Shown: positions 3,590 through 21,618 of the stretch, in pieces
Numbering within the stretch: position 1 is the first letter of the stretch
Layout: each line of letters begins with the position of its first letter
Assembly: GCA_964408705.1 (NCBI GenBank)
Contig: CAYPAI010000003.1
Span: 5,382 to 69,381, forward strand
Length of the DNA stretch: 64,000 bases
Direction: 5' to 3'
Source of the DNA: Candidatus Woesearchaeota archaeon
Lineage (GTDB): Archaea > Nanobdellota > Nanobdellia > SCGC-AAA011-G17 > PNOQ01
Notes under the pieces: generated by a model
Seen by the model: the letters and a program-made list of their open reading frames with translations, nothing else
What the model was told of the DNA's origin: nothing
Databases searched by the model: none
Position numbers and translations under genes: made by a program

Positions 3590-3862
3590 ATGGAACTTAA
3601 TATTTTAGATAAGGGTAAGGATTTTATTAAGATTGAATTAGTTGGAGAAGATCATACTTTAGCTAATGCATTAGCAGATGAACTACATAATGATTCTCAT
3701 GTAACTGTTTCAGGATATAAAAGAGATCATCCTTTGGTAGGTAGTCCTGTGTTGGTAGTTAAGACCGATGGGAAAGAAGATCCCATTAAAGCTATTGAAG
3801 CATGTGTGGCTAGGTTGAAAAAGAAAAATTCGGAGTTCCTTTTACAGATTAAGGAAATATGA
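3590..3862 (+). CDS. rpoL: DNA-directed RNA polymerase subunit L (Rpo11)
   Basis: 90 aa. IELVGEDHTLANALADEL...VSGYKRDHPL is the conserved Rpb11/RpoL dimerisation fold sequence. Confidence 0.7.
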   Translation: MELNILDKGKDFIKIELVGEDHTLANALADELHNDSHVTVSGYKRDHPLVGSPVLVVKTDGKEDPIKAIEACVARLKKKNSEFLLQIKEI

Positions 3863-4434
3863 ACTCCTTAAGAAAAATCTGGAAATTTTTGTGGAATGAT
3901 GATACCCCATTAAGTTGGATTGTTTCTATAGGTTTAGCATTTGTTATTGTTAAGTTTTTGGTTTATCCTTCTATTGGGCTTTTGTTTGGAACTAGTTATC
4001 CAATTGTAGCAGTAGTATCAAGTAGTATGGAACATCCAGAAAATTTTGATAAATGGTGGGAGGATCATGAAGAGTGGTACACAGCTGCAGGGATAATTAA
4101 GGAAGATTTCTCAAATTTTAAGTTTAGAGATGGGTTCAATAAAGGAGATATTATGTTGGTTTTTGGTAAAAAATCAAAAGATATAAATATAGGTGATGTG
4201 CTAATTTTTGAGTCTACAACTCACTATCCAGTTATCCATAGAGTAGTCGGATTTTGGGAAGAAGGTGGAAGATATAATTTCCATACTAAAGGGGATAATA
4301 ACCAAGATAGCTATTCTAGGTTAAATGAAAAAGATATTCATGAGGATAGAGTTTTAGGAGTTGCTAGAATGAGGATACCTTTGTTGGGGTGGATAAAAAT
4401 TATGTTTACTAAACTATTAGGAGGGTTAATTTAA
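3859..4434 (+). CDS. Signal peptidase I, archaeal/ER type (Sec11/S26B)
   Basis: N-terminal TM, catalytic Ser box VVSSSMEHP, and the GDVLIF...HRV box. Confidence 0.65.
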   Translation: MNSLRKIWKFLWNDDTPLSWIVSIGLAFVIVKFLVYPSIGLLFGTSYPIVAVVSSSMEHPENFDKWWEDHEEWYTAAGIIKEDFSNFKFRDGFNKGDIMLVFGKKSKDINIGDVLIFESTTHYPVIHRVVGFWEEGGRYNFHTKGDNNQDSYSRLNEKDIHEDRVLGVARMRIPLLGWIKIMFTKLLGGLI

Positions 4435-5575: not shown

Positions 5576-5584
5576 CTTTATAAA
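5576..5584 (+). promoter_or_regulatory. TATA box (tttataaat) about 27 nt upstream of ATG 5607; candidate promoter of the pilin-like operon
   Basis: Position and sequence fit the archaeal core promoter. It lies in the only sizeable gap before a run of six abutting genes. Confidence 0.4.
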
Positions 5585-5606
5585 TTTCTGAATAGAATCT
5601 TGTTTT

Positions 5607-6476
5607 ATGTCAAAAAGAGGCCAGATTACTATTTTTATAATCCTAGGAATTGTTATAATAACTGCCATTGCGTTATTTTTATACCTTGGTGATTTTTTTA
5701 CTAAAACCGATGTTGCCGAGGAAAATGTTGAGTCTTTTGTTTCTTCTCAAATTGAACCAAGTAAAAAAGTTGTAAGAGATTGTGTTAAGGAAAGTTTGAT
5801 TGATGCAGTTATTTTTGTTTCAAAAGGAGGAGGTTATTTTGATTCTCCAATGGGTGTTGATTTTTGTGAAGAATATTCTTCTGATTACGAAGATTGTTTA
5901 ATTCCATATGTAGCATCATATAGTTATTACCTTGGGCAGAATAGAGTTATAACAAAAGATAAATTTGCTATAGAGCTTAATGATTATATGACTAATTCTG
6001 ATAATTTTCAAGAAATTGTTGATTGTGTAAACATTAATCTAGATGTTGTCGAATCTTCAGGAGTAGACATTTCTGAGAGAGGTTTTAGTTTAAGTGTTCC
6101 TGAAGTTGGTGAAGATCGTATATATCAAACTGTTGATTTTTTTGATTTATTAACTATTAGTAAGCTTGATTATTCTGCTACAGTTTCTGAAGTTGGATTA
6201 AATATTGAAGCCCCAATAGGTAAAGTTCAACAAGTTGTATCAGATGTAGTAGGATGTTATTTAGGAGAGTATTTACCAAGTGATTATAATAGTTATTGTA
6301 ATCAAGACAATATTGTGTTTAATGCTGGATGGTATAATGTAGATGTACTTCAAGATCCAAGTATTAATATTGGAAATTTTAATGATTGTGTTGGAGAATG
6401 TGTAGATTGTTATTATGTAGGTTTTGATATAGAAGATAATGATGCTGAGTTTAATATAATATTAAAAGAATGTTAG
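5607..6476 (+). CDS. Type IV pilin-like protein (class III signal peptide), Cys-containing extracellular domain
   Basis: N-terminus MSKRGQ-ITIFIILGIVIITAIALFLYL: a short basic n-region, RG|Q, then about 22 hydrophobic residues. Confidence 0.5.
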   Translation: MSKRGQITIFIILGIVIITAIALFLYLGDFFTKTDVAEENVESFVSSQIEPSKKVVRDCVKESLIDAVIFVSKGGGYFDSPMGVDFCEEYSSDYEDCLIPYVASYSYYLGQNRVITKDKFAIELNDYMTNSDNFQEIVDCVNINLDVVESSGVDISERGFSLSVPEVGEDRIYQTVDFFDLLTISKLDYSATVSEVGLNIEAPIGKVQQVVSDVVGCYLGEYLPSDYNSYCNQDNIVFNAGWYNVDVLQDPSINIGNFNDCVGECVDCYYVGFDIEDNDAEFNIILKEC

Positions 6477-9400
6477 GAAAAAATAAGAAAAGGATGGCTG
6501 TATTTATGATTTGGTTAGTTATTTTTTCTTTTTTTAATTTTATAGCTATAGCTCCTAAAAGTGTTAGTGCAGAAGTTCCATATTGTTGTGTTCAAACTGA
6601 AGAAGATGATAATGGAAATAGGGAGTACTGTGTGTCTAGCGAAGACTCTGATGATTTTGGAGAACTGCAATGCGATGGTACTCCAGTTTATGGTTCTAAT
6701 TGTGCAGATGCTAATGCACCTCAAGATTGTGCATTAGAAACGTGTATACCTATTCTTGGTGATTCTTGTTTATCTAATTATCCTAAAGTTAAATGCTTGA
6801 ATGAAGGTGGTGTTTCTGATCCTGGAAATAAAGAGAACATAGCTGAATGTAGGCTTGGATGTTGCGACCTTGGAGGGTCTTGTACAATCGTTGAGCAAAA
6901 TGAATGCTTAGGCAGTCATGATTCTGGAATAACTAATCAAGTATCTTGTAGTCTTTCTTGTTCCCCTAGTCAGTTAGGTTGTTGTGAAATGGTAGGATCT
7001 TGTTCATTTACTAATTTAGGTGATTGTAATATAAATGATCCAAGTGTTGTTTTCCATCAAGATAGAAATTGTAATGAAGTGACCTCTTGTGCGGCAAGGG
7101 CAGATTCAAATTCATATCTTGGTTGTGGTGATTCTGGCCTAGAACAACATTCTGAACATAGTGTGTATTGGTATGATTCTGAAGGTAATCGCGAAAGTAT
7201 TCCTACTTCTGGTGTAAATTATGTTGGGCCATCTGGAGATATAATTAGTACTGGAGATGGGGCTTGCGGATATCCTGATTATACTTGTGAAGATCCTGAC
7301 GGGTTAGGAGTGGGCCAAGGGGCATATTGTAAAAGTACAGCATGTTTATTAGAAGGAGATTGTACTAATTGTAATCCTACTGAGTTCTTACATGGTGAAA
7401 CTATTTGTTTAAATCCTTGGGGTGGACATTTTACTAATGAAGCGAGAAGTAAGGAAATAAAGGGTTTTGTTTTAGAATGTAATTCTGGTCAAATAGTTGA
7501 GCCAACCGATGTATTTAGTAGGAGTGATTTTGTTTGTGTGAATGGTGAAAAAACATTTAATGATATAACTAGAAAGACTGCACGTAAGATTTCTAATGAA
7601 TATGAAAAATGTTTAGATTGTGGAGATGGCGGTTGGTCAATTTTAGACACAATATCTTATGTTCCTGGTTTTGGTGGTTTAATACAAGGTACCTTTGGAT
7701 TGCTTGGTTTTGATGATTTAGTGTGTACGTCTGGTTCTGGGTGGGATATTCTTGGTGCCGATTTTACAGGCACTAAATGTGAGGATGTTGGAAAAACTAG
7801 CGACGGTATTCAGATGTGTGAATATGATCATGATTTTTATGCGCCGATTGGATCTTGTAATCCTGTAAGCCCTCCCGAAGGAAACAGGTGTGATCTTTGT
7901 GGGAAAGGTGGAGATAAATATACAAATATTTGTACAATGGAAGAGTGTAATGTGCTTGGAGACTGTACTTTTGAACCTCAGACTGTAAATATAGAGAGTG
8001 CATTGGCAGCTGGTGCTTTATCTTTTGGAACTGCAGTATCAATATATACTGGTTGGTGGGTTGGATGTAAGGCCGCTAGTGCTTTAGGGTTTACAGGTTG
8101 TGAAGCTCCTCCAAGTTGGGCTACACCAGCTGAGTTATGGTATGGTACTGATAAAGTTGCATTATCTGTGTTTGGTCTAGATGTTACTACTTCTGCAATT
8201 TATTGGATGATTTTTGGATTAGTAGTGGATATTACAGGTGAGCTAACTAATGAAGAAGAGCAATATGTTTCTATTTTAGCAGATGAAGATGGATCCATTA
8301 ATCTTGCAAGAGCTTTGACTGTTGTGAATACTGTGTCTACTGAATCAGGGATAGAATATCATTGGATTTGGAAAAGATTATTGGGTTCATTATCTGCAGA
8401 AGTTTTTAACCCAAATCTTATTGGTGAGTTAATGTTGTCTGCAAAATTACATAAGATATATGAAAATATTATCACACGTGCAATTGAGGAAGGATATGGT
8501 CAAATGGGCTATTTATTTGTAGGTCAACCTTGTAATGCCGCTTGTGCTAATGCTATGGCCGAGGAAGTAGTAAATGCAGCTGCAGAGCAGGGTATAGAAA
8601 TTTCTCATGAAACTGCTCTTGAAGGGTTTAAGGAAATTGCAACATTTCATGGAACTCCTGCAACACCTTTAATCCCTGAAATCCCTGCAATTCCAGGAAC
8701 TTCTGCCTTAGGAGAATTTACAGATGCTAGTGGGAATATAATTACTTCAAATACTCCTGAAACTACTGTCACATGGACTGAAACTATTCCTGCAGATCCT
8801 GCAACATCTACACCTGCATTAGGAAATCTTGTAGATGCTGATGGAACTGTTTTATCTTCAGATGTTGCTCAAACCACAGTTACTTGGACTGAGACTACTC
8901 CTGCTGTAGCTGGTACGTCTGCAGTTCCTGAAGTTCCTGCTGCTGATGCAATTGCACCTGGTGCAGATTCTATAAGTGATGCTGCTGAAACTGCAGCTGA
9001 TGCTTCTGCAGATGTTGCTGATGATGCTGTAAAAAGTCAATTAGGTACTTGGACAAAACATATTCTTAGAACTGTTGGTGCAATAATCCATGTAGTTAGT
9101 ACTGCTAATTCATTGAAACCAGGAAAATGTGTTGCTGAAACTCCTTATGTTGGTAATGAGAAATGTGAAAATTGTGGAGGTGCTGAAGGACAGTGGTATT
9201 GTAGTCAAGAAAGATGTGATGTTTTAGGAGCAGTAAATAATCAATGTAAATATTTACAAGGTGAAGGTTTTGAAGATAGTAAATGTGTGTCTTTAGATCA
9301 TTCGGACGTAAACCCTCCTCAAATAACTAGGATTAGTGCTCAATTATTTGATTCATTAGGAGATTATGTTGAAACAAAAGAAGTAACTAGTAATAGTTTG

Positions 9401-10609
9401 AAAGTTAGCACTAGTTATAACTGGCCTGATTTAAACTCTATTTATTTAGAAATTCAAACTGATGAGGATGCTAAGTGTAAATATAGTAAACAAAGTAATT
9501 CGGATTTTGATATGATGGATTCTTTAGACTTTGAAGGAGGGATACATTATTCCTTGACCCATAATACAAATATTACTTTTACAGAGTTTGATAAAACTGG
9601 GGGAGACGTAGTTATTTATCTAAAATGTGAAGATATTAATGGAAATGTTCATACTGCTGGTGATGATTTTAATACTGTTGAATTTAGTTTTGGGGAGAGG
9701 CCCGACGAGTTACCCCCTGAAGTCATAGTTAAATCTCCTTCAAATGGTGCATTTTTGCCTGATACAGTGAGCACAATAGATTGGGTTCTTAATGTATATG
9801 ATAATAATGATATATCTGGTTGTAGATATACTCAAGATAACAGTACTCTTTATTCAGATATGGAATATGATTTTGAGTATAAAGGTTCAACTTCTTGTGC
9901 AGGTACTAATTATGGTTGCCAAGAGTATGACGCTAGCGTTATTTTAGAAGATTATGAAAGTTTAAATATAACCCAACTTGTTGATTATGGTGCTGGAAGT
10001 TTAAATTATAATTTTTATTTTAGTTGTATAGATGGATCTGGAAATGACAATAATCCACCTTATGGATATGCTTTTAATATTGTCCCAGGTTTTGATGTAA
10101 ATATAACTTCACCGGTTAATGGTTCAGAAATATATGAAATTAGTCCTGAGATAGTTGTTGAGACTTCAACTTCTGCATCGTGTAGTTATGAAATTGATGG
10201 AGTAGAATATGACTTTGAATATGGAGATTCTTTGTTAACTAATTTACATTCGATTTTCCACTCTGGAAATCTTACTGGAAGTCCTGCAGGAGTTTCACAT
10301 ATACTAACTGTAGGTTGTAATGATTTGGCTTATAACGAAGCTACTGATCAAATAGTTTTTGAGGTTATTCAAGATTTAGTTTCCCCTAATTTAGTTAGAT
10401 TATATACTTATAATGGGAAATTATGGTTAGTTTTAGATGAGGAATCTTCGTGTAGCTTTACAACTTTAGAAAATGATCAACCTGTAGATATGGTGAGTAT
10501 GTATGGTGAAGATAAATACTTTACAGATTTGATAGATGGAGTTGATTTGTATTATATAACTTGTGAAGATGTGTGGGAAAATGAAGCAAGTTTTACGATC
10601 TATCCATAA
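6470..10609 (+). CDS. Giant (1379 aa) cysteine-rich secreted surface protein; putative adhesin
   Basis: Sec-type signal peptide (MLGKNKKR-MAVFMIWLVIFSFFNFIAIA-PKSVSA|EV). About 500 aa of very Cys-dense sequence. A Pro/Thr-rich linker contains a 37-aa tandem repeat (TTVTWTET). A second Cys module repeats the C..C...C.VLG.C pattern. C-terminal beta-rich region. Confidence 0.6.
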   Translation: MLGKNKKRMAVFMIWLVIFSFFNFIAIAPKSVSAEVPYCCVQTEEDDNGNREYCVSSEDSDDFGELQCDGTPVYGSNCADANAPQDCALETCIPILGDSCLSNYPKVKCLNEGGVSDPGNKENIAECRLGCCDLGGSCTIVEQNECLGSHDSGITNQVSCSLSCSPSQLGCCEMVGSCSFTNLGDCNINDPSVVFHQDRNCNEVTSCAARADSNSYLGCGDSGLEQHSEHSVYWYDSEGNRESIPTSGVNYVGPSGDIISTGDGACGYPDYTCEDPDGLGVGQGAYCKSTACLLEGDCTNCNPTEFLHGETICLNPWGGHFTNEARSKEIKGFVLECNSGQIVEPTDVFSRSDFVCVNGEKTFNDITRKTARKISNEYEKCLDCGDGGWSILDTISYVPGFGGLIQGTFGLLGFDDLVCTSGSGWDILGADFTGTKCEDVGKTSDGIQMCEYDHDFYAPIGSCNPVSPPEGNRCDLCGKGGDKYTNICTMEECNVLGDCTFEPQTVNIESALAAGALSFGTAVSIYTGWWVGCKAASALGFTGCEAPPSWATPAELWYGTDKVALSVFGLDVTTSAIYWMIFGLVVDITGELTNEEEQYVSILADEDGSINLARALTVVNTVSTESGIEYHWIWKRLLGSLSAEVFNPNLIGELMLSAKLHKIYENIITRAIEEGYGQMGYLFVGQPCNAACANAMAEEVVNAAAEQGIEISHETALEGFKEIATFHGTPATPLIPEIPAIPGTSALGEFTDASGNIITSNTPETTVTWTETIPADPATSTPALGNLVDADGTVLSSDVAQTTVTWTETTPAVAGTSAVPEVPAADAIAPGADSISDAAETAADASADVADDAVKSQLGTWTKHILRTVGAIIHVVSTANSLKPGKCVAETPYVGNEKCENCGGAEGQWYCSQERCDVLGAVNNQCKYLQGEGFEDSKCVSLDHSDVNPPQITRISAQLFDSLGDYVETKEVTSNSLKVSTSYNWPDLNSIYLEIQTDEDAKCKYSKQSNSDFDMMDSLDFEGGIHYSLTHNTNITFTEFDKTGGDVVIYLKCEDINGNVHTAGDDFNTVEFSFGERPDELPPEVIVKSPSNGAFLPDTVSTIDWVLNVYDNNDISGCRYTQDNSTLYSDMEYDFEYKGSTSCAGTNYGCQEYDASVILEDYESLNITQLVDYGAGSLNYNFYFSCIDGSGNDNNPPYGYAFNIVPGFDVNITSPVNGSEIYEISPEIVVETSTSASCSYEIDGVEYDFEYGDSLLTNLHSIFHSGNLTGSPAGVSHILTVGCNDLAYNEATDQIVFEVIQDLVSPNLVRLYTYNGKLWLVLDEESSCSFTTLENDQPVDMVSMYGEDKYFTDLIDGVDLYYITCEDVWENEASFTIYP

Positions 10610-10610
10610 G

Positions 10611-11111
10611 ATGGAAAAAGGACAATTAATAGGGCAGCCTTTAGTTTTTTTATTTTATTTAATTGCTGCAAGTTTGATTTTATTTGTAGGAATTAAGGCA
10701 GTTACTTCATTAAATTGTTATAATGATAAAATAGAATATTATGATTTTATAAGGAGATTTGAGAGTAGAATCAGTACAATTAATAATGATGCAGTAGGAA
10801 GTAGGTTATCATTAAAGGAATTAAATTTACCTTCTAAATTTGATTATATTTGTTTTTTTGAAGATTCACAGAATTTAGATTTAGTAGAGAATTATAAATT
10901 AAGATTATTAATTGAAACTAGTATGAATCAAAATGATCCTCCTAATATGTTCGTTTATTCTTCTGATGCTTGCAGTGACTTTGAAGTAATGGTTGAAAAG
11001 ATTAAAGATTTGAATATAGGTGAAAATTTTTGTGATTCACTTACAGATAGATCTTTTAATGCTGTCCTTGAATCTATCCCAGGTGAAGTTAATATATCAA
11101 AATCTATTTAA
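10611..11111 (+). CDS. Type IV pilin-like protein (class III signal peptide)
   Basis: The ATG at 10611 lies immediately after the stop of the giant gene. MEKGQ-LIGQPLVFLFYLIAASLILFVGI. The listed ORF start at 10563 overlaps the upstream gene and adds a non-hydrophobic leader. Confidence 0.5.
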   Translation: MEKGQLIGQPLVFLFYLIAASLILFVGIKAVTSLNCYNDKIEYYDFIRRFESRISTINNDAVGSRLSLKELNLPSKFDYICFFEDSQNLDLVENYKLRLLIETSMNQNDPPNMFVYSSDACSDFEVMVEKIKDLNIGENFCDSLTDRSFNAVLESIPGEVNISKSI

Positions 11112-11127
11112 ATTACTTAATTAAAAA

Positions 11128-11985
11128 TTGAGTATGGAAAAGGGAGGACAAGGTATACAGTTTAATTGGATTTTTATTATTATTGCAGGAGGTTTAATTT
11201 TAATTTTTTTTATGTTTTTTATTAATAATTATTATGATCTTCATAAATTGAAAGTTGGGTCTGAAACTGCAAGGGGATTGGATCAGGTTTTTTTAAGTGC
11301 TAAATCCACTCCTCAATACAAAAATTTTGATTTGAAAGGAAATGAATTTGATTTAAATTTTGAGTGTGGTTTTTTTGTAGTAAATGATGAGTATAGGCAG
11401 GAAACAGATTATGTTGTGTTTGGGGAGGACTTAACTGAGGTGAGCGAATTAGTAATTTGGTCTAAAGAGTTTAAAAAACCATTTAATGTTGATAATGTGT
11501 TGTATGTTTTAGATGTAAGAAAAAAAGTTTATGTCGAAGGGAATCTAGATTTTTTAAAAGGTTTTCCTGAAGATATAGAGGTTGTTTCTAATGTTAATGA
11601 TGCAGAACTTGTTGTATTTTTTGATTATTGTCCTCCTGGGTATGAGAATAAGAAGAAAGTGTGCATTGTTGATGATAAAATAATTTTTGAGAATAATGTA
11701 TACCCTTATTATGATGATATCTTAGTGTATGCTATTCTATTTTCAGATCTCACTAGTTTTGAATGTGGAGTTACTCAACTCGAGAATAAATGGTCAAATC
11801 TTTTCAAGATATACTCTAAGAAAATAGATTTTATGTCAGGGTGTAGTTCACATTCTAATATCTTAAAATCTGAGTTGGATTCTGCCTTGAGCCAGGTGCT
11901 AAGTGGAGAAGGTATTTTTAATGAAGAGGAAATAATTTATGCTAACAGGAATTTAGCTAACCTTGGTTGCGGGGTGGTATTTTGA
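11128..11985 (+). CDS. Type IV pilin-like protein (class III signal peptide), Cys-containing
   Basis: MSMEKGGQ-GIQFNWIFIIIAGGLILIFFMFF. Confidence 0.5.
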   Translation: MSMEKGGQGIQFNWIFIIIAGGLILIFFMFFINNYYDLHKLKVGSETARGLDQVFLSAKSTPQYKNFDLKGNEFDLNFECGFFVVNDEYRQETDYVVFGEDLTEVSELVIWSKEFKKPFNVDNVLYVLDVRKKVYVEGNLDFLKGFPEDIEVVSNVNDAELVVFFDYCPPGYENKKKVCIVDDKIIFENNVYPYYDDILVYAILFSDLTSFECGVTQLENKWSNLFKIYSKKIDFMSGCSSHSNILKSELDSALSQVLSGEGIFNEEEIIYANRNLANLGCGVVF

Positions 11986-12419
11986 AAAAAGGACAAGTTC
12001 AAATACAAGAAACTACTCTTGTAATATTTATTTTTACTGTTATAGTCGGCTTAGGTTTGATTGGTTTTTACAAGTTTAGTATTAATAACATAGAAGATTT
12101 AGATATGAAGTACCAGGAAAATAAATTTAAACAATTAGTTGATGTTATACCAAATCTTTCTGAATTAAAATTATCTCAATTAGGAGTTGAGTCTGAGCCT
12201 TGTGTGGATTTAATTAAGGCTCAAATATTTAAGGAGATGCAAGAAGAATATGATTTCGGTTTTAAAAAAATACAAATTGTTGGTTCAACCCCGGTAATTA
12301 TATACGAGAAAAAGAAAGATTCAGATAGTTTAAGAAAGTATAGTTCTCCTATCTGCACATATGACCCCTACACCAAGAGGTTTGAAGTTGCAAAATTAGA
12401 GGTGGATTGGTATGTCTAA
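11967..12419 (+). CDS. Type IV pilin-like protein (class III signal peptide)
   Basis: MRGGILKKGQ-VQIQETTLVIFIFTVIVGLGLIGF. Overlaps the upstream gene by 19 nt. Confidence 0.5.
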   Translation: MRGGILKKGQVQIQETTLVIFIFTVIVGLGLIGFYKFSINNIEDLDMKYQENKFKQLVDVIPNLSELKLSQLGVESEPCVDLIKAQIFKEMQEEYDFGFKKIQIVGSTPVIIYEKKKDSDSLRKYSSPICTYDPYTKRFEVAKLEVDWYV

Positions 12420-12831
12420 AAAAGGACAAGTTGAAACGTTAGGTTTAGTTGTGATAATTATATTAATTTTATTTTTAGGTTTAATATTTTTAAGGTATTC
12501 AGGAAATAATGATGATCCTATCGACGATAAGTTTTTATCCCTAAAAGCTAATAATTTTCTTAGTGCAATTAAACAGTTAAGTATAGGTAATTATAATTTT
12601 GAGTATTATGTTTCTGATTGTTGCGTAGGTAATCCAAACTCTTGTAATAAAGTTAATGAGGCAGTTCTATCTTCTAAAGAATATTTGGAAGAGGATGCAG
12701 ATTTTAAATTAACTTGTTTTTCAGGAGTAGTTTATGATTTTAACATGGGAAATTGTGATTTTTATGTAAATTCTGAGACGTTTGTATTATCATCAGGAGA
12801 TAAGATATCTTTAAGAATATGTAGAATTTAG
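12412..12831 (+). CDS. Type IV pilin-like protein (class III signal peptide), Cys-rich
   Basis: MSKKGQ-VETLGLVVIIILILFLGLIFL. Overlaps the upstream gene by 8 nt. Confidence 0.5.
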   Translation: MSKKGQVETLGLVVIIILILFLGLIFLRYSGNNDDPIDDKFLSLKANNFLSAIKQLSIGNYNFEYYVSDCCVGNPNSCNKVNEAVLSSKEYLEEDADFKLTCFSGVVYDFNMGNCDFYVNSETFVLSSGDKISLRICRI

Positions 12832-12841
12832 TATTTTTGCT

Positions 12842-12865
12842 ATTTGGGGCCCTTATTGCCCAAAT
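12842..12865 (+). terminator. Hairpin (ATTTGGG-10 nt-CCCAAAT) followed by a T-rich tract, just downstream of the last pilin-like gene
   Basis: Inverted repeat read directly. Archaeal terminators are usually T-tracts, and this one is modest. Confidence 0.25.
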
Positions 12866-12898
12866 TTAGCTAAATTTAGCCTGTTTTATTTACTCAAA

Positions 12899-13058: not shown

Positions 13059-15131
13059 ATGAAACAATTTATTAGAAAAGTTTCAGCTGTTGGTACTAGC
13101 GTAGCAATGTTAGGAATGACAGTTGGAGGCGCTGTGGCTGCAGATCTAGCAGATATGCCTGCTCCTTTCGTAGCAGATAATTCTTATGTTAGTACAGCTA
13201 TGGTTATTGGTAGTTCAAGTGATACTGCCGCTAGAAATACGTTAAAGACGTACTTCGACGGATTTGTTGAATCAAGTACTGCTGTTGGAGATGTTACTTC
13301 AAGTACAGATGAAGAAAAGATATATGTAGGTGAAAATCTTCTTGCAGAGTTTTCATCAACCTTAGATGATGGAGATTTAGATGGTCTATGGGACGATTCA
13401 ATCTCTTTTGAAGGTGAAAGCCTTGAAACTTCAGAAATTATTGAAGTTACAGGTAATGTTTACTTAACTACTTCAGGTGTTGAAAATGAAGAAGAATTAA
13501 GCGATAAAGTTGCTACATATACAAATGCATCAAATAGTTGGGCTTACAGATACACATTCGATGAAGATTTCAATGACACAGTTACAAGTTCAGATGAACT
13601 TAAAGTTGACTTTTTAGGTAAAGAACTTAGAATAACTAGTTTCACTGCTTCAAACAATAAAGTAGAATTTACTACAGGTGCTGATTATTCCTTAGGACAA
13701 GATTCTTCTGTTGCAGTAGGTGGACACACAGTTTATGTTGGAACTATCTTTGAATCTAAAGTTGAAATTTGGGCAGACAATGAAGATCATAAGTTTTTAT
13801 CAGATGGTGATGAAGAGACTTTCGATATAGGAAATGATCAAGTTGAAGTTAAAGTTGAAGACATAGGTTATACTGATGATGTAGCTTCAAGAACAGTTCT
13901 TGTAACTGTTGGTGAAGATATTACTACTTCAGTAAAAGATGATGACGCAGTTCAAACTGAGTTAGGTTCACCTGATGTTGATGATGATAACGACGATGCA
14001 GAGTGGAATTGGCATAATTCAATTACTAGAGATGGTGCACTTACTGCAGGAGATTACATCGGAATTCAATTCCATCAAAAGATGAATAATTACGATGACG
14101 ATCCAGCGCCATTAGGTAGTGGAGAAAGCATGTCTACACCATTCGGTTATTTGACACTAGATTTCGATGTTCCAGAACAAACCTACGATCAATATACTAT
14201 TGAGTTTGAACAAAACTACGATATCGATCATGGTGATGTTGATGAAGTACACGTTGTCTTGATTACTGCTAATGACGGAACTAGTAGTAATGAAGGAATT
14301 AGTATTGACGGAACTGACACTGCAAAACTAGCAGTATTGGATAATGGTTCAATATACTATGAAGATAACGATGGAGACTGGCAACCAGGATCAGTAGATG
14401 CAGGAAACTATTCTACTGGAAATTTATATCTTGAATCTGGAACAGGAACTACTAAAAAACTAGGATTGCTAAAAGCAAACGGAACTACTGGTATGGGTAG
14501 AGAAGGATTTATTCCTGGCGGATTAGGAGCTCTTAAGTTAGAAGATACAGAGTCTGGTGATGACGGTAGTATAACTGGAGATATTACATTTAATGTTTCA
14601 GTTAATTCTACACAGTTAGGTGAAACTGCTGAAGATTCAGATAGCGGAGACGTACAATATCAAAGAAACAGTGCTTACATTGGTACTGGTGGATGGGATG
14701 ATGGAGACATGGTAACTGCTTATGGTACTAAGTTTGTAAACTTAGAATCAAACTCAGATAATGACCAAGTTGTATTCTATTTGCCTTCTGAAGAATTGTA
14801 TGCAGATTACTCTTTTAGTTTAAGAGGATCTAGTAGTTCTTCAAGTACTGAAGCTGATTTGGTAACTGCTAGTGAAGATACATCAGGATACAGTAACTTA
14901 GTTCTTGTTGGTGGTCCTGCTGTTAACAGTGTAACTGCTAGCTTTATGGGTAAATCTTTCCCTAGTTACGGAGATGCATCTGGAATTGCTGCAGATACTG
15001 CATTAGTTCAACTTGTAGAACAAGCTGGACAAACTGCATTGATTGTAGCTGGTTGGGAAACTGCAGATACTCAAAGAGGAGCTAGTGCTGTAGCTGCAGG
15101 TGGATTGACTGGTTCAAGTCATATAGCGTAA
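13059..15131 (+). CDS. S-layer (surface layer) protein, Methanococcales/Thermococcales type
   Basis: Signal peptide ...VAMLGMTVGGAVA|ADL. Acidic Thr/Ser/Asp-rich 690-aa protein. The C-terminus (SNLVLVGGPAVNSVTASFMG...TALIVAGWETADTQRGASAVAAGG) resembles the conserved S_layer_C region (LVLVGGP...VAGW..DT..AA). The gene is visibly less AT-rich than its neighbours. Confidence 0.65.
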   Translation: MKQFIRKVSAVGTSVAMLGMTVGGAVAADLADMPAPFVADNSYVSTAMVIGSSSDTAARNTLKTYFDGFVESSTAVGDVTSSTDEEKIYVGENLLAEFSSTLDDGDLDGLWDDSISFEGESLETSEIIEVTGNVYLTTSGVENEEELSDKVATYTNASNSWAYRYTFDEDFNDTVTSSDELKVDFLGKELRITSFTASNNKVEFTTGADYSLGQDSSVAVGGHTVYVGTIFESKVEIWADNEDHKFLSDGDEETFDIGNDQVEVKVEDIGYTDDVASRTVLVTVGEDITTSVKDDDAVQTELGSPDVDDDNDDAEWNWHNSITRDGALTAGDYIGIQFHQKMNNYDDDPAPLGSGESMSTPFGYLTLDFDVPEQTYDQYTIEFEQNYDIDHGDVDEVHVVLITANDGTSSNEGISIDGTDTAKLAVLDNGSIYYEDNDGDWQPGSVDAGNYSTGNLYLESGTGTTKKLGLLKANGTTGMGREGFIPGGLGALKLEDTESGDDGSITGDITFNVSVNSTQLGETAEDSDSGDVQYQRNSAYIGTGGWDDGDMVTAYGTKFVNLESNSDNDQVVFYLPSEELYADYSFSLRGSSSSSSTEADLVTASEDTSGYSNLVLVGGPAVNSVTASFMGKSFPSYGDASGIAADTALVQLVEQAGQTALIVAGWETADTQRGASAVAAGGLTGSSHIA

Positions 15132-15207: not shown

Positions 15208-15693
15208 ATGTCAAAGTCCAAAGAACAAAGAAATAAAATTATTTTTGGATTATTTATCATTTTTTTGATGGTAAGTAGTACTGCAGGATTCATTTATTCA
15301 GGAGGTTCAACTCAAAAAATAAATGGATTTAAATTCACTAATGTAGGGGATGGTTGGCAAGTTTGGATAGAAGAACTAAACTCTTACCTTATTTTTAGAT
15401 ATCTTCCAAATGAAATAAATTTTGATTTTGATTTTTTAGATAATAGCTCTAAGTTTAAAATATTAAATAAAAATTGGGATCAATCTTCTTTGGAAAAGTT
15501 GAGAACTGCTCTACTCTTTAGAAGTATTCAAACTGAGATTATTGATGATTTAAATTGTGAGGAGTATACTCTTGTGTTAAATAATCTTTATTCTGATTTA
15601 GTATTAACTAAAGAACAAAAATGTTTTTATATTGAAGGAGATTCATTAAAGTTTGTGGAAGGAGTTATTTACAAAGTGTTTAAGGTTATATGA
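15208..15693 (+). CDS. Hypothetical membrane-anchored protein
   Basis: N-terminal TM (IIFGLFIIFLMVSSTAGFIY). No recognisable domain. Confidence 0.3.
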   Translation: MSKSKEQRNKIIFGLFIIFLMVSSTAGFIYSGGSTQKINGFKFTNVGDGWQVWIEELNSYLIFRYLPNEINFDFDFLDNSSKFKILNKNWDQSSLEKLRTALLFRSIQTEIIDDLNCEEYTLVLNNLYSDLVLTKEQKCFYIEGDSLKFVEGVIYKVFKVI

Positions 15694-16337
15694 TGAAAAC
15701 TAATTTAAAACTTTTAGGACTATTCTTGTTGTTTTTATTTTCTTTTTTAGTTTTTACTAATCAAACTAGTAATCTATCTGAAGATGAAATTTTAACTAGT
15801 TATGAATATACTCATGCAGGAAGAACTTTTGAGTTTAATATAACTGAAATTAATGATAATACTAGGCATGTTTTGAATTATAAATATGTAAAAGGAAATT
15901 TTAATAGATTTGCATCAATCCCTTTTAGATATTCACCTTACGATTTAGAATATATGTATATGGAAGAGTTATCTGAATTTATACTTAACTCAGAAGTTAT
16001 TTACATAAGTAGAGATCACTCTTTAGAGGAATTAACAGATAGTAAAGATGGTATTGCAATGTTAACTTTAGCTAGGGTTTTAGATAGCGAGATGGATCCA
16101 GATATTTATGAATTTCCCTTAGCTATTGCTTTAACTTCTTATGTTGAAGGTATTCATTCTCCTATAGTTGGATGTGAGTATAGTAATCCTGAAGCAAGAG
16201 TTATAGAGTTAAGAGTTGGAAATAAAGATGCAGTATACAAAGAAGGAGAATATTGTGTTGTTATGGAGTTTGAAGAAGGAACAGATCCAATTAAAGTTGC
16301 TACAAAACTTACTTATCATGTCTTGGGTGTGATGTAG
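15690..16337 (+). CDS. Hypothetical secreted protein
   Basis: Signal-peptide-like N-terminus (LKLLGLFLLFLFSFLVFTNQTSN). Overlaps the upstream gene by 4 nt. Confidence 0.3.
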   Translation: MMKTNLKLLGLFLLFLFSFLVFTNQTSNLSEDEILTSYEYTHAGRTFEFNITEINDNTRHVLNYKYVKGNFNRFASIPFRYSPYDLEYMYMEELSEFILNSEVIYISRDHSLEELTDSKDGIAMLTLARVLDSEMDPDIYEFPLAIALTSYVEGIHSPIVGCEYSNPEARVIELRVGNKDAVYKEGEYCVVMEFEEGTDPIKVATKLTYHVLGVM

Positions 16338-16463: not shown

Positions 16464-17936
16464 TTATTTAATAGTTATAGCTCCTTGGCAGAATGTTTTT
16501 GCGTAGTTTAATTTTTCCTTAGATTCAGAGTATATTGTAAACACAGTTTCATTTTTTTTAATTTTATCCTTTAGTTTTTTATGTAAATATATTCCTGCAG
16601 CTTTTTCAGAAGGAGCTCCAGCAATTCTTGCTATCTTAGTAATTTTTTTGTTATCTATTTCAATTATAGCTCCATGCTTTTTTGATTTAATGTCTACAGT
16701 GTATTTACCTAAGTGTATATTTTCAGGCTCTATCGTAGATTTACCACCTTGTGCTTTTATTATTTCCTTCATTTTAGAATATGCCTTTCCTGACTCTAAG
16801 ATTTCTCTTGCAGAAGCTTTTGTTTTGGCTAATTTGAGTAGTTTGTCTGCCATAATTATAGATTTTTCTTCTAAATCTTTTGGTGCACCTGGATGTCTTT
16901 TGAGGATGTATAATACATCTCTAGCTTCTAAATTTGGTCCAACACCGTTTCCAATTGGTTCCATTCCGTTTGTGATGATTACTTTTGTTTTCATGTTTAG
17001 TTTTTTACCTAAGTTTATGAATTTTTTACTTAATTTTTTGGCCCTTAACCTTGTTGGAATTTTTGCAGTTTTTCCAATAGGGATGTCTATTAATACGTGT
17101 GTCGATCCAACACTAGCTTTTTTTGCCATTATTGAAGAAAGCATTAATCCTTCTGGATCTAGCCTTAAGGGGTATCTTACTTTGATCAATTTATCGTCTG
17201 CTCCTGCTAGTTCCATCGCACCACCCCATATTATACATCCATTTGTTTTTTTTACTATCTGTTTTATTTTTTTTGAAGTAAAACTTACCTTGGCAAGAGT
17301 CTCCATGGTGTCTGCAGTTCCTGCTGCACTAGTGATAGATCTTGAACTACTTTTTGCCATAATAACTCCTGCTGCTGCAAGAATTGGTGTAATGAGCATA
17401 GTAGTTCTGTTATTAGGTATGCCTCCAAGGCAATGTTTATCTGCAACTATTTTTTTACCAAAATTTAATTTTTTTCCACCTTTAAGAACTGAGTTAGTGA
17501 AATTTACTGTTTCTTCTTGAGAAAGACCATTATGATAACATCCAGAAACGAAATAAGCAAGTTCAGTTTCTGTTAAGTCATTTTCACTTAAGTCTTTTAC
17601 TAATATTTCTATCTCATCTTTAGATAGTTTCTTCCCATCTAATTTATTTTTGATTAATTCTATAGATCTAGGTGTATGTGTTGGTTTGACCCTAATTTTA
17701 GTCCCTACACCTGGTTTAATTATATCAACTACTTCTTGAAATAATCCTATTGTACCTTTTCTAATGGTTCCAGAGAGGTCAGATATATTTACTGATACAA
17801 TTATTTCTTTTTTTCCTTTTTTTAATAGAATTCTATCTGCTGCCTGTACATCTAACTCTTCTGCATCTTCATGATTTAATGCTGCAACTAAAGTTCCGCC
17901 TGTTGCAACGTTTAATTCTTTAACCTTCAGTCGCAT
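16464..17936 (-). CDS. deoA: AMP phosphorylase (thymidine-phosphorylase family, DeoA-like)
   Basis: 490 aa. AMPpase-specific N-terminal domain (MRLKVKELNVATGG...). Glycosyl-transferase family 3 core (ADKHCLGGIPNNRTT, RSITSAAGTADTMETL). Confidence 0.7.
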   Translation of the reverse strand: MRLKVKELNVATGGTLVAALNHEDAEELDVQAADRILLKKGKKEIIVSVNISDLSGTIRKGTIGLFQEVVDIIKPGVGTKIRVKPTHTPRSIELIKNKLDGKKLSKDEIEILVKDLSENDLTETELAYFVSGCYHNGLSQEETVNFTNSVLKGGKKLNFGKKIVADKHCLGGIPNNRTTMLITPILAAAGVIMAKSSSRSITSAAGTADTMETLAKVSFTSKKIKQIVKKTNGCIIWGGAMELAGADDKLIKVRYPLRLDPEGLMLSSIMAKKASVGSTHVLIDIPIGKTAKIPTRLRAKKLSKKFINLGKKLNMKTKVIITNGMEPIGNGVGPNLEARDVLYILKRHPGAPKDLEEKSIIMADKLLKLAKTKASAREILESGKAYSKMKEIIKAQGGKSTIEPENIHLGKYTVDIKSKKHGAIIEIDNKKITKIARIAGAPSEKAAGIYLHKKLKDKIKKNETVFTIYSESKEKLNYAKTFCQGAITIK

Positions 17937-18939
17937 ATTCTTCCTCGTATAACTTATACACGGCTAAAATGATAGACAATGCCAATGGACCTATAATAAT
18001 TCCAGGAATCCCTACTAATTTGATCCCTCCAAACACGCCGACTAATAGTGCAACTTGATTTATTTTTGAAGTTTTACTCATTATTTGGTGCCTCAATATG
18101 TTATCTGTGTAACCTAAGGTGACTATTGAATATATGAGTAGAAGTATTGCATCAGTTGTAAACCCTGAGATCAAAAGATATATCGATGCAGGTACATAAA
18201 TTAAAGTTGGACCTAATAGTGGAACCATTGCTAAAACTATAACTAAAAATGACCAAACCAAAGGGGTAGGAATATTAAATAAATAAAATCCAATAAACGC
18301 AAGAACACCTTCAATAAGTGCTATAATTAATAATCCTAAAAATAATCCTCTAACTGAAGATACCACATCACTTTCAAATCTTTTTTTAATCCTATTTTCA
18401 AATGGAATTATTGATCTAAATTTCTTTATGAGATTTTTCCCATCTCTTAGGAAAAAGAATAAGCAAAAGAATATTACAAATATATTTAATAATCCTCCCA
18501 ATATATATCCTGTGATTTTTGAACTAGATGTTATGAATGACTGAGATAATCCAAGTACGGTTTCCTTAAAATATCTTTCATAGTTTATATCTAAATGAGT
18601 TAGTTTTTGTAATTGATTAGATTGTTCACTTAAATCCATTCCACTTGCAGCATTGTATAAATTTATTGTTTCTTGGAACATAGCATTAGCAAAGAATATC
18701 AAAGGAAGCAGGACTAGAAATATTAAGGAAAAAATCAAAATCATTGCTGATGAATTTTTATTTTTTATTTTTTTAACTAAAGCTAAGTATATAGGGTATA
18801 GGGCTATAGCTAAAACAATTGAAGTTAATAGTGCTATCTTGAACGGAGATATTATTTTATAACTAACATATAATAGTGCAATTACTGATGCTATAATTAT
18901 TAGTTTGCCATACTCCCCCTTGTCATTATTCTCCAACAT
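17920..18939 (-). CDS. AI-2E/PerM (UPF0118) family membrane transporter
   Basis: About 8 TM segments, with the typical length and hydropathy. Call is by resemblance only. Confidence 0.45.
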   Translation of the reverse strand: MLENNDKGEYGKLIIIASVIALLYVSYKIISPFKIALLTSIVLAIALYPIYLALVKKIKNKNSSAMILIFSLIFLVLLPLIFFANAMFQETINLYNAASGMDLSEQSNQLQKLTHLDINYERYFKETVLGLSQSFITSSSKITGYILGGLLNIFVIFFCLFFFLRDGKNLIKKFRSIIPFENRIKKRFESDVVSSVRGLFLGLLIIALIEGVLAFIGFYLFNIPTPLVWSFLVIVLAMVPLLGPTLIYVPASIYLLISGFTTDAILLLIYSIVTLGYTDNILRHQIMSKTSKINQVALLVGVFGGIKLVGIPGIIIGPLALSIILAVYKLYEEEYATEG

Positions 18940-19019
18940 TATTAATGATTCTGCTTAAAATATATATAAGGTTTTGGATTTTTAGAAATCTTTTTGAATG
19001 TTACTTTTTTTATTTTTGT

Positions 19020-19694
19020 ATGAGATTAGGTGTTTTATTTTCAGGAGGAAAGGATTCTTGTTTTGCTCTTGCTGAATCGGTGAAGCAAAATGAAGTAGTT
19101 TGTCTTTTGTCTATCCTTTCAGAAAACCAGGATAGTTATATGTTCCATACTCCTAACATTGAGTTAACAAGTTATCAATCTAAGGCTTTAGATATCCCCC
19201 TTTTAACTAAGGTAACCAAAGGTAAGAAGGAAGAAGAGTTGGAAGATTTGAAGATATTAATCAAAAGTGCTAAATCTAAATATAATATTGAAGGTGTTGT
19301 TACGGGTGCAGTAGGTTCAGTTTATCAATCTACGAGGGTGCAAAAAATTTGTGATGACCTAGGGCTATGGTGTTTCAATCCATTATGGCAAAAAGACCAG
19401 TTAAAGATATTGAACTATCTTGTTAAAAATAAGTTTGAAGTATTAATCACAGGGGTTTTTGGTTATCCTTTAGATGAGTCTTGGCTTGGAAAAAGAATAG
19501 ATTCTAAAATTATAGCTAAACTAGATAAACTTCATCAAAAGTATGGCCTAAATCCTGCCGGAGAAGGAGGAGAACTTGAAACTACTGTGTTAGATTCTCC
19601 ATTGTTTAAGAGGAAACTGATTGTTAAAGACTATGAGAAGGTTTATTCTAATTACTCAGGGGTTTTTAGAATAAAGGAGGTTTATTTGAAATGA
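19020..19694 (+). CDS. Diphthine-ammonia ligase-like PP-loop ATPase (Dph6 / MJ0570 family)
   Basis: MRLGVLFSGGKDSCFAL carries the PP-loop SGGxDS. The start was trimmed from 18945 to the Met preceding the motif. Confidence 0.5.
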   Translation: MRLGVLFSGGKDSCFALAESVKQNEVVCLLSILSENQDSYMFHTPNIELTSYQSKALDIPLLTKVTKGKKEEELEDLKILIKSAKSKYNIEGVVTGAVGSVYQSTRVQKICDDLGLWCFNPLWQKDQLKILNYLVKNKFEVLITGVFGYPLDESWLGKRIDSKIIAKLDKLHQKYGLNPAGEGGELETTVLDSPLFKRKLIVKDYEKVYSNYSGVFRIKEVYLK

Positions 19695-20221
19695 TTTTAA
19701 TTATTAGTACATCTAGTGCAAAATTAAGTGAAAATGAGTTTGTAAATCCTATAAAAAATATTGTTAAAGAAAAAGCAATAATTAAACATTATACTGATAT
19801 TAATAAAGATGATTTAATTAATTTTGATAAGATTATAATTTGTGGTACTGCCTTGAAAGATAATGAATATTTAGATCATATTAAAAAGTTTAAATGGATT
19901 GAGAATTATGATAAACCTTTGTTAGGTATTTGTTCAGGGATGCAAATTATTGGTTTGAGTTTTGGGGCAAAACTAATTGCTAATAAAGAAATTGGTATGG
20001 AAAAAATTAAAGTTCTTAAGAAAAATAAATTATTTTCTAAAGATTTTGAAGCATATGAATTGCATAATAATTCTTTAACTGAATTATTTGAATTTGAAAT
20101 ATTGGCAGAATCTGGTAATTCTGTGCAAGCGATAACTCATAAAGAGAAAGATATTTATGGAATTATATTTCATCCTGAGGTTAGAAATGAAAATATTATT
20201 TTGAATTTTGTTAATCTTTAA
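19691..20221 (+). CDS. Class I glutamine amidotransferase (GMP synthase subunit A-like)
   Basis: Catalytic triad context: LLGICSGMQIIG ... YGIIFHPEV. Confidence 0.5.
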   Translation: MILIISTSSAKLSENEFVNPIKNIVKEKAIIKHYTDINKDDLINFDKIIICGTALKDNEYLDHIKKFKWIENYDKPLLGICSGMQIIGLSFGAKLIANKEIGMEKIKVLKKNKLFSKDFEAYELHNNSLTELFEFEILAESGNSVQAITHKEKDIYGIIFHPEVRNENIILNFVNL

Positions 20222-21618
20222 TATACTATTCTTGGGCCATATCCCCATAATTTAACCGCTTTGGCTAGTTCAGATTCTGGATTTTGTTTTACCCATTTTT
20301 TTAAAGGTATTCTTTTTTCATAAATTTCTCTTGCTTGTTCTATTGCAATAGTTCCTCCAGTAGGTCCATCTGGATGACCTAATAACCCTCCTCCACATTG
20401 TATTAATATATCTTGTCCAAGTTGATCCATTACTGATTCAAAGTCTCCAGGATGTAGTCCTCCTGAGGCAGTCATCCATACTGGTTTAATATTATACCAT
20501 TTTTGACCAAGGCTAGGTATTTTTTTATGAGGTTTTAAGTTTTTTTCTTGAAGTACTTTTTGTATATACTTTGCTTCACCATAATCTTCCATTTTGGCTA
20601 AAGGGGATCCTCCGTGGAGTGAGTCTACACCTAATAATCTGAAGAGTTTAGCAAGTGCAATCATAGATATTGAGAAACCATTTAGTTCTCCCTTTCCATG
20701 TATCCCTTTAGAGTTATCCCTAGTAATAAATCCGTGCATTGCCCTATGTGCATGTATAGCTAATCCTGTATTAGATCTTCGCATTGTGTCTATTCCGGAA
20801 AATCCAGTAGTAATAACATCTATCATCATGAATATTCCTTTATTTTGCTTTATGATCTTTGCACGTTTTTTCATTATGTCTATATTTGAGTGAGTTATGT
20901 TACAAAGATAAAATTTTTTATTTTTTGTTAATTTTTCTGCTCTTCTTAGTTCCTTGAGAACCATCTTTGCTCTGTTATTAAATTTATTAAAATAAAGATT
21001 TGTAAGATTTTCATCATCTTTTATTCCATCATATGTCCCATTCCCGGAAGTAAATAATACTTTTGCAAGTATGGATTGTTCCTTGGCAGTTCTTCCTATT
21101 TTAGGTTTAGGTACTGTTGCAACCAAACATCCTTTTGGTTTTTTTAATAACTTTCTCACTCCCCTAATACCATATTTAGGTCCTGGAAATTTTTCTACCA
21201 TAGGTTTTGGAAATCTTATGTCAAAAACCCTCATGGCTGAAACCATTTTCATTCCCGCAATATTTCCAACAATGCCTGCAAGAAGTCCAGAAATATTATC
21301 TAATTCAAATAAGTCTAGGGGGTATGCAACTTTAAATGTTAGGTTTTTGTAATCTAAATCATAAGCTATTGCTCTTTTTTTTGAAGCCATAGGTATTCCT
21401 GAATCAGGCCCAGAATAAACTTTTGTCCAAGTTCCCGTAGAGGATTCTGCTGCTACAGAAGCTGCACCATCTTCAAATACCTTTCTTAAGGAAACTTTTT
21501 TTGCTTCATCTAATGCAGATTTGCTTAATTCAAGTTTTATAAATGTTATTAGATAATTTTTATCTGGATTTTTAGGTTTCCACCCTTTTTTAGCTAAATA
21601 ATCAAGTTGTACTGCCAT
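20218..21618 (-). CDS. rbcL: Ribulose-1,5-bisphosphate carboxylase large subunit, form III
   Basis: 466 aa. YDGIKDDEN (KDDEN active-site region), LIQCGGGLLGHPDG (compare GGGTLGHPWG), GLAIHAHRAMHG. Confidence 0.8.
   Translation of the reverse strand: MAVQLDYLAKKGWKPKNPDKNYLITFIKLELSKSALDEAKKVSLRKVFEDGAASVAAESSTGTWTKVYSGPDSGIPMASKKRAIAYDLDYKNLTFKVAYPLDLFELDNISGLLAGIVGNIAGMKMVSAMRVFDIRFPKPMVEKFPGPKYGIRGVRKLLKKPKGCLVATVPKPKIGRTAKEQSILAKVLFTSGNGTYDGIKDDENLTNLYFNKFNNRAKMVLKELRRAEKLTKNKKFYLCNITHSNIDIMKKRAKIIKQNKGIFMMIDVITTGFSGIDTMRRSNTGLAIHAHRAMHGFITRDNSKGIHGKGELNGFSISMIALAKLFRLLGVDSLHGGSPLAKMEDYGEAKYIQKVLQEKNLKPHKKIPSLGQKWYNIKPVWMTASGGLHPGDFESVMDQLGQDILIQCGGGLLGHPDGPTGGTIAIEQAREIYEKRIPLKKWVKQNPESELAKAVKLWGYGPRIVY

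Follow-up and report, generated by a model that had tools for sequence, protein, structure and literature searches.

Analysis of a 64,000-nt stretch of a Candidatus Woesearchaeota genome (contig CAYPAI010000003.1; hereafter the window) revealed a block of six genes on the plus strand, in which five genes for prepilin-type proteins (pA–pE) are grouped with one for a secreted, Cys-rich giant of 1379 aa. On balance, and with modest confidence, we read this locus as the pilin/adhesin (minor-pilin) module of an Epd-like (clade 1/system 1) archaeal type IV filament whose machinery is encoded elsewhere. All six open reading frames (ORFs) of the original prediction, and the N-termini quoted there, were present: pA (5607-6476, 289 aa, MSKRG↓QITIFIILGIV, the arrow marking the predicted cleavage site), the giant (6470-10609), pB (10611-11111, 166 aa, MEKG↓QLIGQPLVFLFY), pC (11134-11985, 283 aa, MEKGG↓QGIQFNWIF), pD (11982-12419, 145 aa, TTG start, MKKG↓QVQIQETT) and pE (12412-12831, 139 aa, MSKKG↓QVETLGLVVII). 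The six ORFs were matched by independent metagenome gene calls, and identical proteins were found on a 246-kb Joint Genome Institute metagenome contig.

Prepilin-type N-termini of five protein families

A six-frame scan of the 64 kb for a start codon, [KR][GA]G?Q within 10 aa and then a hydrophobic stretch, in ORFs of at least 80 aa, retrieved exactly pA–pE, and the same rule gave no hit in 50 codon shuffles. Directly after the predicted cleavage site, each of the five proteins has an uninterrupted hydrophobic domain of ~20 residues, with a Kyte-Doolittle maximum of 2.7-3.7. Overall identity among orthologues was 25-50%, yet the start was nearly fixed in each of the five families, with the consensus sequences M.KRGQVTIFIILGI in pA, MKKGQ.(M/L)GQP.IYIF in pB (where the window protein begins MEKGQLIGQP and the GQP motif is conserved), M.K(K/R)GQG.QFNWIF in pC, M.KKGQ.QIQE(T/S) in pD (with an invariant Glu at +6) and MKKGQ(V/I)E..GLVIIV in pE, the most conserved of the five, whose window member carries Glu at +3 and a C-terminal Cys...Cys loop. 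Across the orthologues of pA–pE, position -1 was occupied by Gly or Ala only, -2 by Lys or Arg and +1 by Gln with few exceptions; Gln at +1 was found in all five window proteins and most orthologues, and the exceptions were mostly in pC, where Q, E, L or M occurred. The basic residue of the originally described [K/R]G(G)Q signature stands at -2 in pA, pB, pD and pE, whereas the start of the window pC (MEKGGQ, 11134-11160) has an extra Gly that puts Lys at -3 and not -2, its orthologues reading K(K/R)GQ, and is the least canonical of the five.

Prepilin peptidase substrates need Gly, Ala or Ser at -1 and a site ahead of the H-domain (PMC4371748, PMC3875500). In Methanococcus maripaludis, the EppA-dependent pilins are cut at KG↓QV, the site in EpdB and EpdC, and EppA requires Gln at +1, as confirmed by mass spectrometry (PMC4371748, PMC3875500). 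The prepilin signature first proposed for the five genes was borne out, in that the motif is conserved in orthologues and equals this known EppA-type site, KG↓Q. These data indicate that the N-termini of pA–pE behave as class III (prepilin-type) signal peptides, whose leaders would be cleaved. As an internal control, three neighbouring anchored proteins (u224, d1 and d2) all proved to be without the [KR]GQ motif.

Profile-profile comparison revealed that the five families are alike over the first 25-55 residues only, the pattern expected of pilins, which combine a common assembly helix with unrelated heads. That pB–pE might be paralogues beyond the N-terminus was ruled out by the same comparison. 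The claim that all mature domains contain cysteines needs the correction that pD has just 2. All six proteins and their family alignments gave no match in Pfam, NCBIfam or PDB-sequence profile searches, and the six families are missing from Pfam and NCBIfam.

Domain layout of the giant

The original description of the sixth gene product as a Sec-exported, Cys-dense giant agreed with our analysis, which found a signal peptide, many invariant cysteines and no pilin character. The Sec signal peptide (residues 1-34, cleavage ...APKSVSA↓EV) is followed by an N-terminal Cys-rich region (residues 35-505), whose modules include two GCC...C...C repeats and which ends in a Cys-knot motif (residues 461-503) with the invariant pattern GSCNP..C..CG.GGD..N.CT..EC..LGDC. 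The centre (residues ~506-883) is variable, acidic, Ala/Gly-rich and nearly Cys-free, and the length of this central region ranges from 57 to 281 residues. A second Cys-knot motif (residues 884-930; G.C.PE...C..CG..EGQ..C...RC..LG), related to the first, precedes four tandem beta-sandwich domains (residues ~945-1379) with a conserved Cys pair in each.

Within the centre lies a Thr/Pro/Ala-rich repeat insertion (residues ~725-835; 8642-8974, plus strand), which contains 'TTVTWTET' twice, is missing from the orthologue P0009 in pairwise alignment and looks like an O-glycosylated extracellular linker. Three weakly hydrophobic, Gly-rich segments, conserved in position, flank the centre; their Kyte-Doolittle values are 1.0-2.05, compared with 2.7-3.7 for the anchors of the pilin-like proteins. 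These segments could form a membrane hairpin or a mere hinge.

An AlphaFold2 (AF2) model of residues 35-1234, built with 20 sequences, had a mean predicted local distance difference test score (pLDDT) of 59.9, with 70-84 in the N-terminal Cys-rich region, <50 in the helical centre and 76-90 in the C-terminal beta-sandwiches. Foldseek matched the latter to adhesin, cadherin and immunoglobulin (Ig)-like tandem modules at E-values of ~1e-4 to 1e-5. We considered and rejected the possibility that the giant is a PilY1 or DUF2341 adhesin, since it had no Pfam match and the model shows tandem beta-sandwiches with Ig-like, cadherin and adhesin matches. A search of 5.8 billion proteins found 20 homologues of the giant, all of them called 'hypothetical' and none with a Pfam domain; the genome-derived ones all came from metagenome-assembled genomes (MAGs) of Woesearchaeota, Pacearchaeota or Nanoarchaeota.

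Conservation of the block and its pairing of pA with the giant

Comparison of the locus across related genomes, which the original prediction had proposed as a check, showed that the block is conserved. Among the 26 distinct loci examined, with order judged where the contig was long enough, the order PCNA-pA-giant-pB-pC-pD-pE-S-layer(-d1-d2) recurred with three exceptions: in L009 a pair of pB-like genes is followed by ribosomal genes, L028 contains the giant alone, and in L026 pE is followed only by a divergent S-layer-like ORF that was not retrieved in the family tally. In L010 (15692-16626), L024 (14217-14714 and 16877-19167) and L038 (5713-8917 and 10284-10832), insertions of toxin-antitoxin-like, HEPN/nucleotidyltransferase, Fic and ParE genes interrupt the block and leave its order unchanged, so that the order is kept even where a single operon is impossible. 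The recurrence of this order, and the fact that insertions do not disturb it, indicated that the block is a vertically inherited core-genome module and not a mobile accessory island.

pA is always encoded directly upstream of the giant, and in three more distant lineages the two genes are tandemly duplicated as a unit (L029, 209-9688; L030, 6106-16180; L037, 868-11249), pB–pE being single-copy. The window pA represents the short form within a DPANN family of great size. When 1.84 billion representative proteins were searched exhaustively with a profile, 9227 clusters matched at E ≤ 0.001, of which 2229 reached E ≤ 1e-30, and most members are ~650 aa in length (long form). Named members belong to Nanoarchaeota or Woesearchaeota and are all called 'hypothetical', and none of the ten members tested had a Pfam match. 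The constraint on the start extends to this wider family: of 147 representatives, 135 carry [KR][GAS]Q at the start, the median length of the leader being 5 residues, and the consensus reads Q-(I/V)-T-(V/I/L)-F-I-I-(I/L)-G.

The long form was noticed through a concatenated profile of the five families, which had eight long pA homologues among the matches listed. In four loci (L032, 10001-16008; L033, 10001-18762; L034, 131-7857; L035, 10001-18272), long-form pA homologues of 648-810 aa are each followed by a Cys-rich secreted giant of 1182-2208 aa, with 25-58 cysteines in the three that were counted. This suggested that, in this section of the DPANN radiation, pA-like prepilins are generally paired with a giant Cys-rich protein encoded directly after them. 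Three of the four giants were compared with the window giant by hidden Markov models (HMMs) and gave no match to it, and homology between them was rejected for this reason; the idea that long-form pA is a fusion of pA with pB–pE was likewise considered and rejected. In L034, bacterial-type genes (M23 peptidase/amidase, RelA/SpoT) adjoin the long-form pair.

An AF2 model of pA from 17 sequences (mean pLDDT 71.5, predicted template modelling score 0.64) consists of an N-terminal helix (residues 3-73), further helices and an antiparallel sheet. The top 17 in a model comparison included four type IV pilin-class structures, PilJ (6.0), PilA5 (5.9), PilX (5.5) and GspK (5.3), beside unrelated alpha+beta proteins, and a Foldseek search with the model yielded no significant match and no pilin. 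The model is perhaps compatible with the pilin fold, in which the C-terminal half of an extended N-terminal helix packs against a beta-sheet or beta-sandwich.

Junctions and transcription signals

The genes of the block are tightly packed, as first described; the extent of overlap, given there as 2-19 nt, was measured as overlaps of 4-8 nt and gaps of 1-22 nt. pA and the giant overlap by 7 nt (shared letters ATGTTAG), pC and pD by 4 nt, and pD and pE by 8 nt, whereas the giant and pB are separated by 1 nt and pB and pC by 22 nt. The TATA box reported at 5576 corresponds to a TATA-like box, TTTATAAA, read from the sequence at 5578-5585 on the plus strand; its position 22 nt upstream of the pA ATG would imply a leaderless or near-leaderless transcript. 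At the other end (12832-12868, plus strand), a U-tract, TATTTTTG, directly follows the pE stop codon and is accompanied by a weak hairpin. The terminator hairpin previously placed at 12842 did not stand up, since its stem has only 6 bp and its stability is no better than that of shuffled sequences (z -0.59). The U-tract is a more credible terminator, and the transcript probably ends there.

Proposed mechanism and evidence weighing against it

We propose that pA–pE would be inserted into the membrane by their hydrophobic N-termini through the Sec/signal recognition particle (SRP) route, and that a class III (EppA/FlaK/PibD-type) peptidase encoded elsewhere would cut after the Gly or Ala at -1, so that the mature proteins would start with Gln. 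Their N-terminal helices may then come together in a bundle that acts as a short, pilus-like stem or as a priming complex, on which the Sec-exported, disulfide-rich giant would be docked or carried; pA is the probable partner of the giant, given the translational coupling of their genes and the duplication of the two as a pair. The tandem Ig-like domains and the Cys-rich head of the giant would provide an adhesive surface. For its extrusion, the assembly would depend on an ATPase and a platform from another locus and perhaps also on a major pilin, likewise encoded elsewhere, that carries it outwards.

Several results weigh against this proposal. A Pfam scan of the 59 window ORFs revealed no T2SSE, T2SSF or Peptidase_A24 match, in accordance with the earlier statement that the window does not contain the machinery. 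The 7.6 kb upstream of the window, where only housekeeping genes occur, and ~30 related loci were likewise devoid of genes for an ATPase, a platform or a peptidase. The window contained no small major-pilin candidate. pA–pE matched neither PF04021 (Class_IIIsignal/DUF361) nor PF07790 (Pilin_N) in Pfam at E ≤ 1, nor any NCBIfam pilin model at E ≤ 5, and the Pfam scan detected no DUF2341 or PilY1 domain in the giant. In addition, the locus is fixed beside the S-layer gene in the core genome, which could point to an envelope role and not an appendage, and the conserved, weakly hydrophobic central helices of the giant might hold it in the membrane, which would fit a tip adhesin poorly. The tip-adhesin pilus of the original prediction is supported in part, namely in its class III N-termini, its conserved block and its Sec-exported non-pilin giant; the filament itself, a position of the giant at its tip and contact with a host are putative.

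The missing machinery does not contradict a pilus, because pilus genes are also unlinked in characterized archaea: those of M. maripaludis are spread over at least four loci with the ATPase and platform genes separate (PMC3875500), and the Haloferax adhesion pilins are unlinked from pilB/pilC (PMC4371748). According to one study, most Woesearchaeota MAGs contain homologues of flaI, flaJ and flaK (PMC11606122). A survey from 2026 assigned type IV filament (TFF) system 1 to DPANN (bioRxiv 10.64898/2026.04.22.720090).

Genomic neighbourhood

As first reported, the block is followed by the S-layer gene (13059-15131, plus strand), which matched PF05124 above the gathering score (E 9.8e-08). This conserved next gene starts 227 nt after pE, has a promoter-like region of its own and encodes a protein that begins with a Sec signal peptide and has no membrane anchor at its C-terminus. 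Downstream of it on the plus strand, d1 (161 aa) and d2 (215 aa; together 15208-16337) encode N-terminally anchored proteins that are conserved in nearly all related genomes, the anchor of d1, F(L/I)MVSSTIGF.Y, being highly conserved; neither had a family match. Both are possible membrane partners for an S-layer protein that has no anchor of its own. The conserved neighbourhood also contains, three genes upstream of the block, a gene for an archaeal signal peptidase I (3859-4434; TIGR02228, E 1.7e-17), which would process the giant, the S-layer protein and d2. Neighbouring information-processing genes encode eRF1, ScpB, RpoL, TFS and PCNA; with the signal peptidase I gene, form III RuBisCO with AMP phosphorylase and the AglB/STT3-containing glycan island described below, they identify the archaeon as a member of DPANN.

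Further downstream, genes on the minus strand for AMP phosphorylase (16464-17936), form III RuBisCO (20218-21618) and an IF-2B-family ribose-1,5-bisphosphate isomerase-like protein (22252-23055) make up an AMP salvage set (16464-23055) typical of DPANN. A low-GC island (~26900-62800; 24-30%) contains genes for glycan synthesis, namely a flippase, NeuB (nonulosonic acid synthase), UDP-GlcNAc 2-epimerase, DegT aminotransferases, several GT1, GT2 and GT4 enzymes, a PMT-like mannosyltransferase and AglB/STT3 (59100-61658, minus strand), together with a phosphonate branch comprising phosphoenolpyruvate (PEP) mutase, a thiamine pyrophosphate (TPP) decarboxylase and an iron-type alcohol dehydrogenase (Fe-ADH). 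This gene content suggests elaborate, possibly phosphonate- and sialic-acid-like N-glycans on surface proteins. Two adjacent ORFs of 400-409 aa in the island (41831-44262, minus strand) had no Pfam match at E ≤ 1e-5.

Alternative explanations

The strongest alternative, to which we give an appreciable if clearly minor chance, is a fixed membrane-anchored envelope complex, in which pA–pE would be kept in the membrane with or without leader cleavage and no ATPase would be needed. Together with the giant, perhaps anchored by its central helical hairpin, they might with the same limited likelihood form a stalk or scaffold in the pseudo-periplasm that organises or tethers the anchorless S-layer protein. 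In favour of such a complex, the block lies immediately upstream of the S-layer gene, d1 and d2 in every long-enough locus except L009, L026 and L028; it is set among housekeeping genes and was never beside pilus machinery in the loci examined; the S-layer protein has no C-terminal anchor; and S-layer-like proteins recur as companions of archaeal type IV pilus (T4P) loci (PMC4858521). The three conserved Gly-rich hydrophobic segments of the giant flank a Cys-free centre in an otherwise Cys-rich protein, and pA–pE are single-copy genes for proteins with large globular domains, none of which resembles a major subunit. Against it, the central segments of the giant are barely hydrophobic enough for membrane helices, in a region where the AF2 model has its lowest confidence, and the Thr/Pro-rich insert, of a kind typical of extracellular linkers, sits inside the supposed intracellular part of the window giant. 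A conserved peptidase-type cleavage motif is also hard to explain for plain anchors, and in some genomes toxin-antitoxin genes part the block from the S-layer gene, which means that co-transcription with the latter is not required.

A bolder proposal, a little less probable still, is that the block encodes a DPANN-specific core-genome envelope organelle. A fixed prepilin-type stem would hold the giant in or through the S-layer as a site of host contact or exchange, the giant may be membrane-inserted by its central glycine-rich hairpin, and the principle of a pA-like protein with a giant would have been reused across thousands of Nanoarchaeota lineages, the giants diverging fast.

An improbable explanation sees in pA–pE no more than signal-anchored (type II) proteins of the ordinary kind, membrane-bound or secreted, and in the cluster just a collection of surface proteins; their shared basic-Gly-Gln start would reflect common descent or a preference in translation or targeting, and not prepilin processing. 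The lack of pilin family matches, the Foldseek result for pA and the absence of machinery nearby would agree with this explanation, as would the fact that a strict FlaFind-style pattern was satisfied by pA alone. However, leader, cleavage motif and H-domain are common to pA–pE despite their unrelated globular parts, which makes common descent of whole proteins unlikely. The explanation also has to contend with the restriction of -1 to Gly or Ala in pA–pE, the [KR][GAS]Q start and nearly fixed +1 Gln of the wider pA family, the three anchored neighbours without the motif and the identity of the motif with an experimentally verified EppA site (PMC4371748).

Least probable of all is a bindosome-like assembly or secretion pseudopilus, a short surface structure capturing substrates or aiding export or insertion of the giant and the S-layer protein, since the five pilin-like proteins, which are graded in size and include no evident major subunit, the Sec-exported, cargo-like neighbours and the signal peptidase I gene in the conserved neighbourhood would suit it, but the window scans revealed no ABC (ATP-binding cassette) transporter, solute-binding domain or BasEF-like ATPase/platform, archaea are without the outer membrane that requires the piston of a type II secretion system (T2SS), and neither the pA model nor the giant model suggested a ligand-binding fold.

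Significance

Woesearchaeota, Pacearchaeota and related DPANN archaea are abundant, almost entirely uncultured and thought to be attached to other cells. The locus is a good candidate for a cell-contact apparatus, made up of vertically inherited, single-copy, strongly syntenic surface proteins that are now called 'hypothetical', and it offers concrete targets, namely pA–pE and the Cys-rich giant with its Ig-like repeats. The pairing of pA-family proteins with Cys-rich giants among the members examined, in a family of >9000 clusters, suggests a general, previously unrecognised DPANN surface architecture. Surveys that start from ATPase or platform genes will miss pilin/adhesin modules of this kind, since these can lie entirely apart from the genes for assembly. 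A literature search found no paper describing the block.

Comparison with known systems

The closest known system is the Epd (clade 1) pilus of Methanococcus, Methanobacteriales and Thermococcales, in which at least five minor pilins occur with large PilY-like adhesins that carry DUF2341 and the genes are spread over four or more loci, with ATPase and platform apart (PMC4858521, PMC3875500). The locus shares with it Lys or Arg at -2, Gly at -1 and Gln at +1 (KG↓QV), an acidic residue shortly after the cleavage site in some members and pilin genes that can sit apart from ATPase and platform genes, and it encodes five candidate minor pilins, whose globular domains are sizeable, next to a large, secreted, adhesin-like protein; system 1 has also been reported in DPANN. 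In contrast to Epd loci, the block has no linked EppA, ATPase, double TadC or FleN/MinD and no visible ~70-aa major pilin, the giant is without DUF2341 and pA–pE are without a PF04021 (DUF361) match. The acidic residue stands at +3 (pE) or +6 (pD) and not at +5, and is missing in pA–pC; the position of the locus between PCNA and the S-layer gene is fixed. Membership of the Epd system is not established: the +1 Gln and five class III proteins were found, whereas EppA, the ATPase and the double TadC were found neither in the window nor in any related locus examined.

The minor pilin genes fimU-pilVWXY1E of bacterial type IVa pili (T4aP) in Pseudomonas, and the minor pilin/PilY1 complexes of Myxococcus, encode assemblies that are thought to prime pilus assembly and to sit at the tip as an adhesin. 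Their resemblance to the locus lies in several pilin-like genes around one Sec-exported non-pilin of >1100 aa, whereas there is no sequence or fold relation, and domain of life and peptidase specificity are different. PilY1 combines a vWA-like N-terminus with a beta-propeller C-terminus, whereas the giant is composed of Cys-rich modules, a hydrophobic, variable centre and tandem Ig-like domains.

Class III signal-peptide proteins also take part in a surface assembly other than a long pilus in the Sulfolobus bindosome (BasABC/BasEF), whose solute-binding domains, adjacent ABC transporters and own ATPase/platform are not present at the locus. In the T4P of Thermoproteales (clade 4G and related types), Cys-rich minor pilins occur with two large proteins and an S-layer-like protein (PMC4858521). 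The resemblance to the locus lies in multiple small class III proteins whose cysteines are conserved, in a giant that has a signal peptide and is taken for an adhesin, and in the S-layer-like protein; those loci, set apart here by description and not by sequence, hold an ATPase and TadC, and their families are different and lineage-specific. Since clade 1 pili had already been described with at least five minor pilins and a large adhesin (PMC4858521), the arrangement is less novel in kind than the original prediction implied. The kind of system, prepilin-type proteins with a giant adhesin, is known; what is new are the protein families, their complete uncoupling from assembly genes and their fixed context between PCNA and the S-layer gene.

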